12,580 bases of DNA from Promethearchaeota archaeon (GTDB lineage: Archaea; Asgardarchaeota; Hermodarchaeia; Hermodarchaeales; Hermodarchaeaceae). Each line of letters begins with the position of its first letter. Position 1 is the stretch's first letter. Positions 1,056 through 11,546 of the stretch are shown one piece after another. The notes beneath the pieces are model-generated. The model saw only the letters and a list, made by a program, of their open reading frames with translations. It had not been told where the DNA came from and did no database searches. Position numbers and translations under genes: made by a program. Location: positions 1 through 12,580 of the forward strand of contig JBHLPR010000065.1 in assembly GCA_048939245.1 (NCBI GenBank). Reading direction: 5' to 3'.

Positions 1056-1937
1056 ATGGTGCTTCCATTGGATCGGAGTCTTATTTCCGTCCTGGCTGGT
1101 ATATTCACGGTATCTCTGTTTACACTTATAGCCGGAATAACACTAATTGATATTGCCATTCGTATGTGGCTAATCCCTTTGGGGTTCATATTGGCCTGTC
1201 TCATTATCGGTGTGGTTGGTCGACTTCGAGTTCTGCACCTTCTACTTATTTCATTCTTAATCTACTTGGGGCTGATGGTGTTTCTCGCTGTCAGCTCAAC
1301 CCTTAGTGGCTTGGAAGTTCCTCCTCTCTCTTTAGATGCAGTCGTGGACTCATGGTTTGCTTTTCAAAGTTTCGTTAACACAACTATTCCATTTCTTTCC
1401 ATCCTTTCAATTTTCGCAGCAACACTTCAAGAGATGGCTGGAGGGTCATCCATCTTAGCCATCTTCCTAGAATTTTTCGTTGCTTATTTGTTCATTGGCA
1501 TCATTGGATTAATGGTCACAGGAATAGCCGGGCACGTAACGCGTAAACCTGGTCTGTATGTGGCTACTGCCCCTGAACCAACCGCTGAACCACCTGCTTT
1601 TCCAGAACCAACCGCTGCACCGGCTGCTCCGGTCGCTTCAGCTCCCCCTGTTGCACCACAAGGTGCACCAGCACCGCCTGTTCCTCCGACTACGGAAGCA
1701 CCACCAATACCCGCACCTCGCTCTATTGAGGAAGCAACCCCGCCACCTCCTCTGCCATCGAAAGGTGGATCACCTAGTGCCCAAGCAATAGCGGGATTGA
1801 AGGGCAAGGTGAAAAAACATCTGAAAGGAACTGGACAACAAGTTCCAGCAGGCCAGTCACGCTGTCCGCATTGTAATGCTACCATCATTCGTGGTTCACG
1901 ATTCTGCAATGTCTGTCAAAAAGAAATCAAAGGCTAA
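1056..1937 (+). CDS. Multi-pass membrane protein with Pro/Ala-rich linker and C-terminal C4 zinc ribbon
   Basis: About 5 hydrophobic segments in the first ~160 aa, a Pro-rich region (~170-235), then CPHC-x10-CNVC at the C-terminus. Confidence 0.85.
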   Translation: MVLPLDRSLISVLAGIFTVSLFTLIAGITLIDIAIRMWLIPLGFILACLIIGVVGRLRVLHLLLISFLIYLGLMVFLAVSSTLSGLEVPPLSLDAVVDSWFAFQSFVNTTIPFLSILSIFAATLQEMAGGSSILAIFLEFFVAYLFIGIIGLMVTGIAGHVTRKPGLYVATAPEPTAEPPAFPEPTAAPAAPVASAPPVAPQGAPAPPVPPTTEAPPIPAPRSIEEATPPPPLPSKGGSPSAQAIAGLKGKVKKHLKGTGQQVPAGQSRCPHCNATIIRGSRFCNVCQKEIKG

Positions 1938-2214: not shown

Positions 2215-3225
2215 GTGCCTCCGTGCATCATCAATATCATTGGTAGAAAACAAATGGCAAATCCTATTCATAATGAATCACTTGCTCACCCCCAACGTCC
2301 AAGGGAGCCCTCCGACGCCGTAATAGTCCACTGTAGCGATTGCGGAACTTCAGAGGTAATTCGTGATCCCGTTCGTGGTGAAGTTATTTGTACAGGCTGC
2401 GGGTTGGTTTTGGATTCTCATATGGTGGACCACGGACCCGAATGGCGAGCATTTACAAGCGAAGAACGTGATGCTCGAGCTCGTACCGGTGCCCCAATCG
2501 ATTATACACGGCATGATAAGGGTTTGAGTACCACCATCGATTGGCGTGATCGTGATGCTAATGGTCGAAAACTTGCTCCAGGACTCCGCGCACAAATCTA
2601 TCGGCTTCGAAAATGGCAAATCCGTACACGAGTCCATTCAAGTATCGACCGAAATCTTGCCCGCGCGATGAGTGAACTCGACCGTATCACCAGTCAGCTT
2701 AGTGTTCCTCGTCCCGTGAAGGAAGCATCAGCGATTTTATATCGCCGAACTGTCGAACGCCATCTCATACGAGGACGTAGCATCGAAGCCATGATTGCAG
2801 CATGTGTTTACGCGGGCTGTCGACTCCGCCAGGTCCCTCGTACGCTAGATGAGATTGCCCATCACAGCCGAATTAATCGGAAGGAACTTGGGCGCTGTTA
2901 CCGGCTTCTTCTTCGCAAACTCGATATGCGTGTACCCATTTCCCAGCCCACGGACTTTGTACCCCGGTTTGCACAAGCGCTTGACCTTTCAAGCCGAGTG
3001 CAACGCCGAGCTATTGAGATTCTCGACAAGGCTAAAGCGCAGGGAATAACTGCAGGTAAGGATCCCACGGGGTTGGCTGCAGCAACCCTCTACATTGCAT
3101 CAATCCAAGAAGGCGAACGACGCACGCAACGGGAAATAGCTGCGGTGGCTCGGGTCACGGAAGTTACTGTCCGGAACCGCTATAAGGAAATGGTGCGGGT
3201 TTTGAACCTCCAGGTCGAAATCTAG
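2215..3225 (+). CDS. tfb: Transcription initiation factor IIB (TFB), paralog 1
   Basis: Zn ribbon CSDC...CTGC, B-reader GPEWRAF and HDKGLST, RLRKWQ, LIRGRS, GKDPTGLAAA, HTH RTQREIA..VTEVTVRNRYKE. Start is GTG 2215 (AGGAG 5 nt upstream) or ATG 2254. Confidence 0.97.
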   Translation: MPPCIINIIGRKQMANPIHNESLAHPQRPREPSDAVIVHCSDCGTSEVIRDPVRGEVICTGCGLVLDSHMVDHGPEWRAFTSEERDARARTGAPIDYTRHDKGLSTTIDWRDRDANGRKLAPGLRAQIYRLRKWQIRTRVHSSIDRNLARAMSELDRITSQLSVPRPVKEASAILYRRTVERHLIRGRSIEAMIAACVYAGCRLRQVPRTLDEIAHHSRINRKELGRCYRLLLRKLDMRVPISQPTDFVPRFAQALDLSSRVQRRAIEILDKAKAQGITAGKDPTGLAAATLYIASIQEGERRTQREIAAVARVTEVTVRNRYKEMVRVLNLQVEI

Positions 3226-3297
3226 CGGACACCGTGGCAGTTCTTCATAGCCTCTCATCCTCTAATAGGTTGTAAGGGTTAGTGTGATAAAAAAGCG

Positions 3298-3354
3298 AAC
3301 ATTTAAATATTTGTTCAACTAGAAAATAAATGGGAACGTTTAAAAGGTTATCGA
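3298..3354 (+). promoter_or_regulatory. Promoter of TFB-2: two TATA-like boxes
   Basis: AACATTTAAATA (3298-3309) and GGAACGTTTAAAAGGTTATCGA (3333-3354), resembling the TFB-1 upstream elements. Confidence 0.6.
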
Positions 3355-3510
3355 TGAGCTATGCGGCGAAACCAATTCTCCCGCTCGATCTTCTAATACA
3401 CCAGGTTCCATATTGAACCTCTTGGTCACCTTGAAACATCATGACATAGTACGCTGGGAACCCTATGTCTCCTAAACTTTCCTAACCATATATTAGGAGA
3501 AAAATAAACG

Positions 3511-4470
3511 ATGGAAGAAAATTCCTCAATCCATGAAAAGCATCGGCACTTTGCAGATTCGCAAGAACACCGCACATGTCCTGAATGTGGTGAAAGAGAT
3601 GTGATACGTGATGAGAGCCGAGGGGAACTAACTTGCGCAAACTGTGGATTAGTTCTAGATGTGAATAGTATTGATTCCGGTCCTGAATGGCGAGCTTTCA
3701 CAACCGAGGAACGTGAAAAACGTGCACGAACGGGAAGTCCCATAAATTATGCTTTACAAGATCATGATCTCAGTACCATGATTGACTGGCGAAACCGGGA
3801 TGCCGCTGGTCGTCAAATCTCCTCCAATCGACGGGCTGAAATCTATCGACTTCGAAAGTGGCAACGTCGGTCGCGGGTGCATTCTAGTATTGAACGCAAT
3901 CTAGCCAGTGCCATGAGTGAATTAGATCGACTAAGTAGCCAATTGGGTGTATCACGTAACGTGAAAGAAACTGCTGCAGTGATGTATCGACGCGCTTTAG
4001 AACGTCGATTGATTCGAGGACGGAGCATTGATGCTATGATTGCGGCAGCAATGTATGCTGCCTGCCGGTTGCGTGAGGCACCTTGTACTCTAGACGAAAT
4101 TGCCCATCATAGTCGTATTAACCGCAAAGAACTTGGGCGCTGTTACCGGCTTCTTCTACGCCGACTTGAGGTCCGGATGCCTGTATCACAGCCCACCAAC
4201 TTCATTCCACGCTTTGCCCAGAGTCTGAATCTAAGCAGCCGGGTCCAACGGCGTGCAGTGAAAATTCTTGAGGATGCTCGAGTCAAAGGCATCACCGCAG
4301 GAAAAGATCCCACCGGGCTAGCTGCATCGGCACTCTATATTTCTGCTATTATGGAAGGCGAGCGACGCACGCAACGGGAAATTGCAGAAATTGCACGTGT
4401 CACCGAAGTCACAGTACGAAATCGTTACAAAGAACTTGTACGCGAACTCGATCTCGCAGTGGAATTTTAG
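3511..4470 (+). CDS. tfb: Transcription initiation factor IIB (TFB), paralog 2
   Basis: CPEC...CANC Zn ribbon, GPEWRAF, two cyclin repeats, VTEVTVRNRYKE. SD-like TAGGAGA at 3494-3500. Confidence 0.97.
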   Translation: MEENSSIHEKHRHFADSQEHRTCPECGERDVIRDESRGELTCANCGLVLDVNSIDSGPEWRAFTTEEREKRARTGSPINYALQDHDLSTMIDWRNRDAAGRQISSNRRAEIYRLRKWQRRSRVHSSIERNLASAMSELDRLSSQLGVSRNVKETAAVMYRRALERRLIRGRSIDAMIAAAMYAACRLREAPCTLDEIAHHSRINRKELGRCYRLLLRRLEVRMPVSQPTNFIPRFAQSLNLSSRVQRRAVKILEDARVKGITAGKDPTGLAASALYISAIMEGERRTQREIAEIARVTEVTVRNRYKELVRELDLAVEF

Positions 4471-8439: not shown

Positions 8440-8769
8440 ATGTCAAAAAGCCAGGCTAAACCGGAAACCACCAAGACCTTCATTACCATCGAAATCAAGG
8501 ACATGCTCAATCACGGTGGTGAACTCGGTACAGCACTAGTCAACTTTCTCAGTGAAAAGCTCGCTAAAGATGTAACCATCAACGCCGCAGACACCGAAGT
8601 GTATATTCGCAGTGACATCGTTCAGCATCCCAGTAAAACCCATCTTCGCACCTATCTGAAACGGTTCCTCCACCTCAACGCACTCCGTGAAGACCTCAAA
8701 CTCATATCTCGAAGCAAAGACCGATTTGCCATTATAGAATATGTCACCGTGGTCTATGTCGAAGATTGA
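8440..8769 (+). CDS. rpl22e: Ribosomal protein eL22 (L22e)
   Basis: FITIE, NFLSEKL and SKTHLRTYLKRFLHLNALREDLKLIS.SKD.F.I.Y align by eye to eukaryotic L22e ([36 protein letters not shown].Y); 109 aa. Confidence 0.85.
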   Translation: MSKSQAKPETTKTFITIEIKDMLNHGGELGTALVNFLSEKLAKDVTINAADTEVYIRSDIVQHPSKTHLRTYLKRFLHLNALREDLKLISRSKDRFAIIEYVTVVYVED

Positions 8770-8912
8770 TTATCCTCATTTCTGCTTTCAATATCATCAA
8801 CCTTCTCCTCCAACGCAAATGCTCCAAGAGCCGTAACGCTTAAGAATAAAGAACCGACAAAAATCCCGAAATAGTAAAACCGCGGAGATAGGATGTTGAG
8901 GAAACCGGAACT

Positions 8913-8939
8913 CCCTCCTATCCCAATATTTCCCTCCCC
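8913..8939 (-). other. Canonical G-quadruplex motif (minus strand) / i-motif (plus strand)
   Basis: Minus strand reads GGGG-A-GGG-AAATATT-GGG-ATAGGA-GGG (loops 1, 7, 6). Confidence 0.5.
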
Positions 8940-9007
8940 TCCTCCTCGCATGATTTGATGATATTTTTCCAATCCCAACATCCCTCCACTGCCCCACAGA
9001 TTGCGGT

Positions 9008-9021
9008 ATCCGCGCGCGGAT
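9008..9021. repeat. Perfect 14-bp palindrome ATCCGCGCGCGGAT
   Basis: Self-reverse-complementary, intergenic, about 120 nt upstream of the GTPase start. Confidence 0.7.
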
Positions 9022-9137
9022 TTCCAGCGACCCTCCACCCTTTATACCACACAGAAGGAGCGCTAAACCGCTAGAAACTGCAAACCTGAAGGCTTAAGAC
9101 CACACAAACAACGGCTTAATCATTGCGGTGTAGCACC

Positions 9138-9656
9138 ATGCGACACCTCAAAATCCTTGTCATTGGACCCCAAGGCGTCGGGAAAACCACACTCATCAAA
9201 AGTGCTACCAACCACGCCATCTCCACCGACGTCAACGGCTGCACTGTCTGCCTTGACTTCGGCACCCTTGAATATCGCCAATTCAAAGCCCATCTTTTCG
9301 GCAGTCCCGGCTTACAACATTTTGGGCTTGTCCGCAAAGCTCTTTCTGGTGGCACCGACGGTGTCATCCTAGTCGTGGACAGCGCCAATCCCCACACCAT
9401 CGTTCAAGGTGAATGTTACCTCCGTGAAATTTTTGGGTCCAACACTCCACCGGTTGCCGTCGCTGCTAATAAACAAGACCTTCCAGGCGCTATTCTTCCA
9501 AAACAAATCGAAACCCTCCTGAAAATCCGCGCCCCGGTCTTTCCCACGATAGCCCATCGTGGTCTTGGCCTTAACGAACTTCTAGGTCAGTTTATCAGCT
9601 ACCTCGGTGATATCGGAAAAGGTCTTAATGTTGCCACCCTCCTTGAAAATGCATAA
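9138..9656 (+). CDS. Small GTPase, MglA/COG2229-like (Ras/Arf superfamily), with atypical switch motifs
   Basis: G1 GPQGVGKT, G2 GCTVCLDFG, G3 FGSPGLQHF, VILVVDS, G4 NKQD, G5 PTIA. ATG 9138 preferred over TTG 9123. Confidence 0.93.
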   Translation: MRHLKILVIGPQGVGKTTLIKSATNHAISTDVNGCTVCLDFGTLEYRQFKAHLFGSPGLQHFGLVRKALSGGTDGVILVVDSANPHTIVQGECYLREIFGSNTPPVAVAANKQDLPGAILPKQIETLLKIRAPVFPTIAHRGLGLNELLGQFISYLGDIGKGLNVATLLENA

Positions 9657-9734: not shown

Positions 9735-10052
9735 ATGGTCGAAGAACTCAATGACAAAACAATTGACGCATTCATCACTGAACATGAAATCGTCGTTCTT
9801 GATATCTACACTGAATGGTGTGGTCCTTGTAAAATTCAGACTCCGATTATGGAGGGTCTTGATAAGGAATTAGATAAGGATCGAGTGCGGATTGCGAAGC
9901 TTGATGCGGATCAGGCGCCAGAGACATCGATGAAGTATCAGATTCGTGCGATACCAACAGTGATTCTCTTTCAGAATGGTAAGCCGGTTAAGACGCACAT
10001 TGGAGTTTGGCCCCGAGAAGAAATTAAAAAGGAACTTGCGGTAATTCTCTAG
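9735..10052 (+). CDS. trxA: Thioredoxin
   Basis: WCGPC active site (9816-9830), cis-Pro motif IRAIPT, FQNG; 105 aa. SD GGAGG at 9722-9726. Confidence 0.96.
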   Translation: MVEELNDKTIDAFITEHEIVVLDIYTEWCGPCKIQTPIMEGLDKELDKDRVRIAKLDADQAPETSMKYQIRAIPTVILFQNGKPVKTHIGVWPREEIKKELAVIL

Positions 10053-10169: not shown

Positions 10170-10583
10170 ATGATACGGTTCTTTGGGGCTGTTTGTGTGT
10201 CGGTGGATGCGGATCGTTTAATGGCTGATGTTGAGACCTTGCTAGAGGATTTTGATGAACGTGCTGGCGGGGTCGTGGCTGTTGTCCTCTTGATGAGGAC
10301 GGGGTTGCCGGTGGCGGCACGAATTCGGGCGCATGTAGATGAAACTTTTCTCTCAGCGAGTTTAGCGACGCTTCTCAATGTGTCCGTGGATTTATCTGAT
10401 AAGCTGTTTACCTTGACTCCAGCAAGAATTATGTTGGACACTGAGGCAGGGAGCTTGATTTTACGGGGGATAAACGAGGATATGGTGCTTGTGGCGGTGT
10501 TTAAAAAGCAACACTTGGGGGCCATTCTTTTACTGGTTGAACAGACAGCAAAAAGGCTCTCACGATTATTTCGGTCAACCTAA
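10170..10583 (+). CDS. Roadblock/LC7 (MglB-like) domain protein
   Basis: Helix, GVVAVVLL..TGLPVA, DETFLSA, IMLDTEAGSLIL, MVLVAV, LGAILL..., final helix: the roadblock pattern. Start is ATG 10170 (TATA-like CTTAAA ~25 nt upstream) or ATG 10221. Confidence 0.88.
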   Translation: MIRFFGAVCVSVDADRLMADVETLLEDFDERAGGVVAVVLLMRTGLPVAARIRAHVDETFLSASLATLLNVSVDLSDKLFTLTPARIMLDTEAGSLILRGINEDMVLVAVFKKQHLGAILLLVEQTAKRLSRLFRST

Positions 10584-10628: not shown

Positions 10629-11345
10629 TTAGAAGAAGAAAGTTCGTCGTTTAGGCTCTTCTTCGTCGCCCTCTTCCGTTTCATCTTCTGCAGGTTCAGG
10701 AGTTGGTGCGGGTTCTGCTTCGGGTTCAGGAGTTGGTGCGGGTTCTGCTTCGGGAGGCGCTATTGGTTCAGGAGCCGGTTCAAACTCCGGTGCTGGTTCG
10801 AAGGTTGGCGCTGGTTCGGGTGGTGGTGGAGGACTTGGCTCCGTTTCTCCAAAATCAAAGGTTGGCGCTGGTTCAGGGGCTGGCTCTGGTTCGGGTGGTT
10901 CTTCAGCTAGAAAAATCTCGGGTTCTGGCTCGGGTTCAGGCTCGGGGAATGATTCAGGTACAGCTTCGGGTTCAGGAACTGGAGGGACTGGAGGTGGTAC
11001 CGCTTCAGGCTCTGGTTCGGGGCTGGGTTCAGGAATAGGCTCGGGTTCCGAAACCGGTTCGGGGCTGGGTTCCGGGGTTGGAGTGGGTTGTGCAGCTTCA
11101 ACTTCTTGAAGGCCAGGAAGCATTGCTTCCACTGCAGCGTCATCCTCACCAAAAGTGACACCAAGAATTTCTTTCAAACAAGGCGCGCATTTTTGGCGAA
11201 CGGCTTCAAGAGCTTCAGAAATAAAAGTCTCGATGGTGCGGTCCTCGTTAGGGTTCTTTTCTTTCCAGAAGAGGAACGTTTGTGTCATGCGCAATGCGTC
11301 ACGGACGCCGTTCCAGTACATTTGACCAAATTCTTCCTGTGACAT
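10629..11345 (-). CDS. Hypothetical protein: small helical N-domain with CxxC, long Pro/Glu-rich disordered region, KRRTFFF C-terminus
   Basis: Start refined to ATG 11345 (MSQEEF): TATA-like CTTTATAT about 25 nt upstream and AGGTG upstream. The ORF-track extension to 11423 lies in the promoter. Confidence 0.85.
10693..10754. repeat. Perfect 2 x 30-nt tandem repeat ([10 protein letters not shown] x2) inside the Pro/Glu-rich gene
   Basis: GGTTCAGGAGTTGGTGCGGGTTCTGCTTCG occurs twice. A 17-mer AAGGTTGGCGCTGGTTC also recurs at 10801 and 10858. Confidence 0.85.
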
Positions 11346-11546
11346 TTCGGAATTACACCTTTCCCATATAAAGGCAAACTTGATAAGTACGCTTCTCTGA
11401 GCGATAGATAACCACTCCCACATATTGCTTAAAATGTTTCGTCACTCTCCTCAGCCATCTGCACCTTTTCAGAAAGGAATAAAGTTTAGAAAAGACGCAA
11501 CAGGCTTTAATAGGGTGCCATATTCCTTGTTTGATGTGGGTCTTCA

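Follow-up and report, generated by a model that had tools for sequence, protein, structure and literature searches.

The closest described relatives of the GTPase considered here are the MglA proteins of groups 2–5, especially the archaeal group 4 (PMC4316618), referred to as 'MglA2-5' in Asgard archaea (bioRxiv 10.1101/2024.02.28.582541). They are marked by an NKxD G4, by a G3 motif that lacks the Walker B Asp and by the absence of Arg, with Thr in its place, ahead of the G2 Thr; as a rule they contain no Arg finger, and their G3 has been described as GTPGQ (PMC4316618). Group 1 MglA carries an intrinsic Arg finger before the G2 Thr and a TVPGQ motif. The importance of the Gln is known from MglA, in which the Q82A and Q82L substitutions abolish both the intrinsic and the MglB-stimulated hydrolysis of GTP (PMC3199381; PMC13408092).

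Individual eukaryotic GTPases and Rup1 are already known to have lost this Gln, so that the substitution by itself does not make a new kind of system. Rab25, a eukaryotic Rab of unrelated origin, has a natural Gln-to-Leu change (Leu71) at the catalytic position, as does the protein described below, and reportedly retains hydrolysis (PMC12663406), which calls for caution with the term 'locked'. In Rap/Rheb and in prokaryotic Rup group 1 the Gln is missing or unused while the other motifs are intact, again as found here, and a catalytic residue supplied in trans has been shown or proposed; these are other subfamilies, of the DxxG type, unlike the present protein.

Motifs and class of the window GTPase

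The window, which is the whole stretch of DNA that was analysed (12,580 nucleotides), contains at 9138–9656 on the plus strand the gene for a small GTPase of 172 aa. Homology, a tree and an AlphaFold model assign it to the archaeal MglA2-5 type, within a clade that has Leu or Met in place of the Gln. The G1 P-loop reads GPQGVGKT (9165–9188), with Gln12 (codon 9171–9173) at the K-4 position and Gly13, not Asn, at K-3. The G2/switch I motif CTVCLDFG (9240–9263) contains the invariant Thr36, and position 35, the site of Arg53 in MglA, varies between C, S, T, R and K. G3 and the start of switch II, LFGSPG-L-QHF (residues 53–62, 9294–9323), place Leu59 (codon TTA, 9312–9314) at the catalytic Gln position, followed by a variable Gln60. 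Finally, the G4 motif NKQD (9468–9479) is invariant. All of these motifs lie on the plus strand, and the intact G1 and G4 reported in an earlier note on this DNA are confirmed, together with Thr36.

The register of Leu59 is secure. By alignment it occupies the Ras Q61/MglA Q82 position, and when aligned to Arl2 it stands opposite the engineered Leu of the Q70L protein (4GOK) and opposite Gln in the wild type. Similarly, when the Leu paralogue class described below is aligned as a profile, its Leu pairs with the engineered Q72L of the Asgard protein HodArfR1 (8OUK) and with the Gln of the wild-type protein (8OUL). In the same genome, 10/10 reference GTPases (Rab-like, Arf-like and MglA group 1) have Gln in this column. 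The AlphaFold model (pLDDT 89) matches MglA and Arf/Arl structures with a TM of about 0.78. The Q-to-L change at G3 that the earlier note had read from the letters is therefore real in its register. It concerns the same position and the same residue as MglA Q82L/Q82A (Myxococcus, Thermus; 3T12, 6IZW) and the Arf/Arl Q-to-L proteins (4GOK, 8OUK); however, those changes were engineered, in group-1 MglA or Arf, whereas the change in the window is natural, fixed and alternates with Met.

In the tree the window GTPase is split (100/100) from the three group-1-type MglA proteins of its genome and falls with MglA2-5. It has the motif marks of that class, namely GSPG, NKQD and no conserved Arg at position 35, and it has neither the Arg finger before the G2 Thr nor the TVPGQ of group 1. 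With groups 2–5 it also shares the general G-[TS]-P-G form without the Walker B Asp and the T-V-x-x-D-F-G switch I. It may be called group-4-like. The earlier note had also drawn attention to the lack of an Arg finger; none is conserved, but this is not peculiar to the protein, because groups 2–5 generally have none (PMC4316618). The real departure is the missing Gln. Where groups 2–5 share GTPGQ the window clade has GSPG followed by L or M, and because L or M, not Gln, stands in 37/37 rows of the orthologue alignment the protein is a variant of MglA2-5. The P-loop differs as well, with Gln-Gly in the window clade and aromatic-Asn in groups 2–5.

Fixation, spread and history of the substitution

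Position 59 is Leu in 21, Met in 16 and Gln in none of the 37 orthologue rows, which include some redundant sequences. Among database homologues of 58–100% identity, 22/22 have Leu (14) or Met (8), as do the orthologues of 18/18 species-level genomes. The closest named homologues are mostly from Hermodarchaeia, with some bins under other Asgard labels; the source would thus be an Asgard archaeon, most likely a member of Hermodarchaeia. Six codons are used at the site by the orthologues, five for Leu (TTA, CTA, CTC, CTT, CTG) and ATG for Met. Codon 59 is covered by contigs from the run that is the likely source and, in a separate study, by one contig of a relative, with no change listed at 9312–9314. 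The Gly-Lys-Thr of G1, Thr36, Asp40, G55/P57/G58, Phe62, the VRKA stretch and NKQD are invariant in the 37 rows. Synonymous sites of the gene are near saturation (pS 0.60–0.88) while dN is 0.07–0.38, below the dN of the neighbouring eL22 and thioredoxin genes in nearly every pair. The window GTPase is conserved under purifying selection, and these data support a natural, selected, hydrophobic substitution at position 59.

A second MglA2-5 gene, reading GTPG-L, is present in the same genome (G000:C53:16474-17175; L111:4975-5676). It belongs to a class of about 230–240 aa with a C-terminal helical/β-hairpin tail, which gives weak winged-helix matches below the curated cut-offs; the class has no family name in Pfam or NCBIfam. 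Leu occupies the catalytic position in 135/142 of these tailed sequences, and the residue is Gln in 95/105 of the relatives that carry a long N-terminal fusion (KaiC-like in those scanned). The tailed class has named members in Odin-, Thor-, Freya/Jord-, Borr-, Hel- and Wukongarchaeia, and their gene neighbours vary between classes. Two further small Leu clades are found in Baldrarchaeia and Ranarchaeia.

The spread of the trait was followed with a DNA pattern for F-G-[TS]-P-G-[LIMF]-x-[R/H/Q..]-F over 400 Asgard genomes. The Leu/Met-type motif occurs in 269/400 genomes and in 65/90 of high quality, with 2 matches in the reversed control; the subset of these matches that was compared falls within GTPase matches. 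There is nearly always one copy per genome, and two in most genomes of the family to which the window belongs; several families (f7, f9, f12, f24, f25) gave no match. The tailed Leu paralogue is a near pan-Asgard single-copy class, and the window GTPase has its Leu trait in common with it, a point absent from the earlier note.

Among the other relatives, a KaiC-like domain is fused to a Gln-type MglA2-5 GTPase in P0029 and about 100 relatives (e.g. L019-L027), an arrangement widespread in archaea (Archaeoglobi, Thermoplasmata, Micrarchaeota, Bathyarchaeia). In the MglA2-5 relatives P0030, P0040, P0054, P0064, P0048 and P0107 the catalytic Gln is replaced by His or Arg; Sar1 and EF-Tu also have His there.

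The gene for ribosomal protein eL22 (8440–8769, plus strand) is the conserved upstream neighbour of the window GTPase and marks the orthologous group in several Asgard classes. In Hermodarchaeia (L/M) and Baldrarchaeia (L) a short GTPase gene is found a little way downstream of eL22, whereas the eL22-linked GTPase has Gln in the Atabeyarchaeia-like family f3 and in family f26, the latter having in addition a tailed Leu paralogue. Trees were built from thinned sets of 87, 51 and 58 rows, from which near-duplicates and most KaiC-fused rows were left out. In these each of the four Leu clades has good support, unlike the backbone, parsimony requires 4–5 changes, and once the trait columns are removed a branch with support 62 sets the eL22-linked group apart. 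The AU test does not reject a single origin (p 0.56), which with the trait columns removed is 8 lnL units worse (p 0.32); the AU tests reject neither a single nor multiple origins. Because the eL22-linked orthologues in other classes keep Gln, the residue was probably lost more than once, and it is this synteny that would favour repeated loss. The linkage to eL22 also hints at co-expression with translation genes, without showing function.

The remainder of the window holds several further features. Between eL22 and the GTPase gene lies a conserved non-coding element (8830–9035), of which 13/14 genomes of the genus have one copy; it was not found in the sister genus. It has a long stem, with some two-sided changes, around an invariant C/U-rich interior and is flanked on both sides by TATA-like boxes; it has no Rfam match, and the frame of a minus-strand ORF within it is not conserved. 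At 2215–4470 the translation, judged by eye, shows a tandem pair of TFB (transcription factor B)-like genes. Two proteins have long linkers rich in Pro/Glu or Pro/Ala: one at 10629–11423 (minus strand), whose conserved N-terminal part contains a CxxC and which keeps its synteny in orthologous loci, and one at 1056–1937 (plus strand), with a Zn-ribbon-like motif at its end. Promoter and terminator scans with a bacterial consensus yielded no signal beyond chance, nor did scans for Rfam families and tRNAs, and no RNA run was among the sequencing runs listed as carrying the sequence.

Possible consequences of the missing glutamine

As the binding motifs are intact and no conserved substitute for the Gln is apparent from the residues themselves beyond the candidate Gln12, the simplest reading, to which we give about an even chance, is that the window GTPase loads GTP, hydrolyses it very slowly and is mostly 'on'. 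Mg-GTP would be bound normally; with no side chain to position the attacking water, the protein's own hydrolysis would be very slow, and it would be mostly GTP-loaded in the cell, acting as a slowly cycling switch or a scaffold. The off step could be a partner protein, nucleotide exchange or turnover, as for the Gln-less Rab25, Rap and Rup1. Several points weigh against a slow switch. The Q82L data come from group-1 MglA, the catalytic set-up of which is unlike that of groups 2–5, and Rab25 with its natural Leu71 is reported to hydrolyse GTP (PMC12663406). HAS GTPases also hydrolyse GTP without a Gln (PMC9599734), and the change of P-loop K-4 to Gln in this clade could compensate. Given that Rab25, which carries this Leu naturally, reportedly retains GTP hydrolysis, the term 'GTP-locked' and the stronger description in the earlier note, of a constitutively GTP-bound protein, are unproven.

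The P-loop Gln is the basis of the first alternative, which we consider unlikely: an active HAS-like GTPase that cycles normally, with catalysis moved to Gln12, possibly on dimerization. Position 12 is Q29/H5/K2/E1 in the 37 rows, that is, Gln or otherwise a long polar residue, compared with F/Y/H in the Gln-type relatives. We take this K-4 position to be that of Ras G12, MglA G21 and dynamin Q40. In the dynamins, which likewise lack the catalytic Gln, a Gln at K-4 (dynamin Gln40, DNM1L Gln34) helps to place the catalytic water, and the Q34A mutant of DNM1L is inactive (PMC9599734; PMC3747075). The HAS GTPases (MnmE, EngA, FeoB, YqeH), like the window GTPase, have a hydrophobic residue after the G3 Gly. 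However, Gln12 is not invariant, the tailed paralogue and Baldr Leu clades keep Y/F/H/T at K-4, and position 13 (K-3) is G34/A3, with no Ser or Asn for a cation. Since it varies and the other Leu clades do without it, Gln12 is treated as a rival and not as the lead. The Asn at K-3 of K+-activated HAS GTPases (PMC9599734, PMC6310460) and the Ser found there in dynamins are both absent, no K-loop is evident from the sequence, and the protein is a single-domain Ras-type GTPase. The 'HAS-type' label of the earlier note is apt as a description of the residue at the Gln position, but does not extend to the K+-binding Asn of the classical members.

Other residues were also considered. Arg66 (the Ras R68 position) occurs in all Leu/Met proteins (37/37 and 136/136) versus 21/161 of the Gln type, but is also present in group-1 MglA and in the Gln-bearing eL22-linked orthologues, with only one independent pair on supported branches, and is rejected as a compensating residue. 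A CxxC in switch I is not linked to the substitution, Cys35 being present in only 17/37 rows. Arg at position 35, the MglA finger site, in the subclade without a roadblock gene represents one event at a variable position.

The second alternative, which we also hold to be improbable and rank after Gln12 catalysis, is that the protein resembles Rap and Rheb, being inactive alone but switched off efficiently by a dedicated GAP, the donor of an Asn or Gln in trans, and thus an ordinary cycling switch in vivo. A precedent is RapGAP with its asparagine thumb (PMC3199381), and the same has been proposed for the Gln-less Rup1 (PMC4316618). The invariant switch II surface (F62, V65, R66, K67, A68) could be the partner-binding face, although it is equally compatible with effector binding, and comparison of the orthologous loci revealed no candidate GAP co-conserved with the GTPase.

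The one neighbour that the MglA family itself suggests is a roadblock/LC7 protein (10170–10583, plus strand), which lies beyond a thioredoxin gene (9735–10052, plus strand; a conserved neighbour within the family). Most orthologous loci have it two genes downstream of the GTPase, its sequence evolves under purifying selection, and MglA/MglB pairing is the family norm; its dimer could be an MglB-like GAP that completes or bypasses the active site. We consider this to have little chance of being correct. The gene is missing from loci L010, L011 and L014, and a search of the corresponding genomes G098, G099 and G106 (77–85% complete) gave no orthologue, the best matches having 23–27% identity; this is probably one loss event in one subclade. 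The GTPase of these loci keeps Met59 where that part is assembled, so the neighbouring roadblock is not required. No roadblock was seen beside the Baldr, Atabey or f26 orthologues. MglB donates no residue to MglA's active site and cannot rescue Q82A/L (PMC3199381), and the roadblock protein reads T/S/A-G where MglB partners of groups 2–5 keep D-G (PMC4316618; position matched by eye). A predicted complex of the GTPase, GTP/Mg and the roadblock dimer (median ipSAE 0.04, mark 0.32) speaks neither for nor against this reading. The role that the earlier note had given to this neighbour is weakened by the three Met59 genomes and by the nature of MglB.

That note had further proposed that Gln60 might take the place of residue 59 by a register shift. 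The idea gains something from Gln60 in 24/37 rows and from Q or H at position 61 in all 37, but it is very improbable: position 60 varies (Q24/R9/A3/P1, so that 13 rows have R, A or P), which argues against compensation, the G58–F62 spacing is the same as in the Gln-type relatives, and HodArfR1 Q72L, which also has Gln at the next position, was crystallized with GTP. Finally, a sequencing error, which as a single-base change the earlier note had already thought unlikely, and a decaying copy with Gln in its orthologues are excluded by Leu or Met in all orthologues (0/37 rows with Gln), their six codons, the covering contigs, the low dN and the invariant G motifs.

Gln-less MglA2-5 proteins in Asgard archaea

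No description of Gln-less MglA2-5 subfamilies of Asgard archaea was found in the literature searched, and the sequences themselves are probably within published Asgard GTPase sets. In that literature we did not meet the finding that whole MglA2-5 subfamilies of Asgard archaea are marked by loss of the Gln, one of these being carried as a single copy by about two thirds of genomes. A broader picture, which we offer tentatively and regard as possible though on balance doubtful, is that Asgard archaea repeatedly made MglA-type GTPases hydrolysis-dead and GTP-loaded. The tailed class, found in most classes, could then be an ancient GTP-sensing regulator that binds DNA or a complex, and for the Hermodarchaeia protein a dynamin-like P-loop Gln could have restored catalysis instead. 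MglA groups 2–5 have no established catalytic mechanism, and the orthologues at the same locus, with Gln in some and Leu or Met in others, form a natural matched pair for the mechanism of GTP hydrolysis in the group. The finding also bears on whether atypical, 'mostly-on' small GTPases were present already among the archaea related to eukaryotes.
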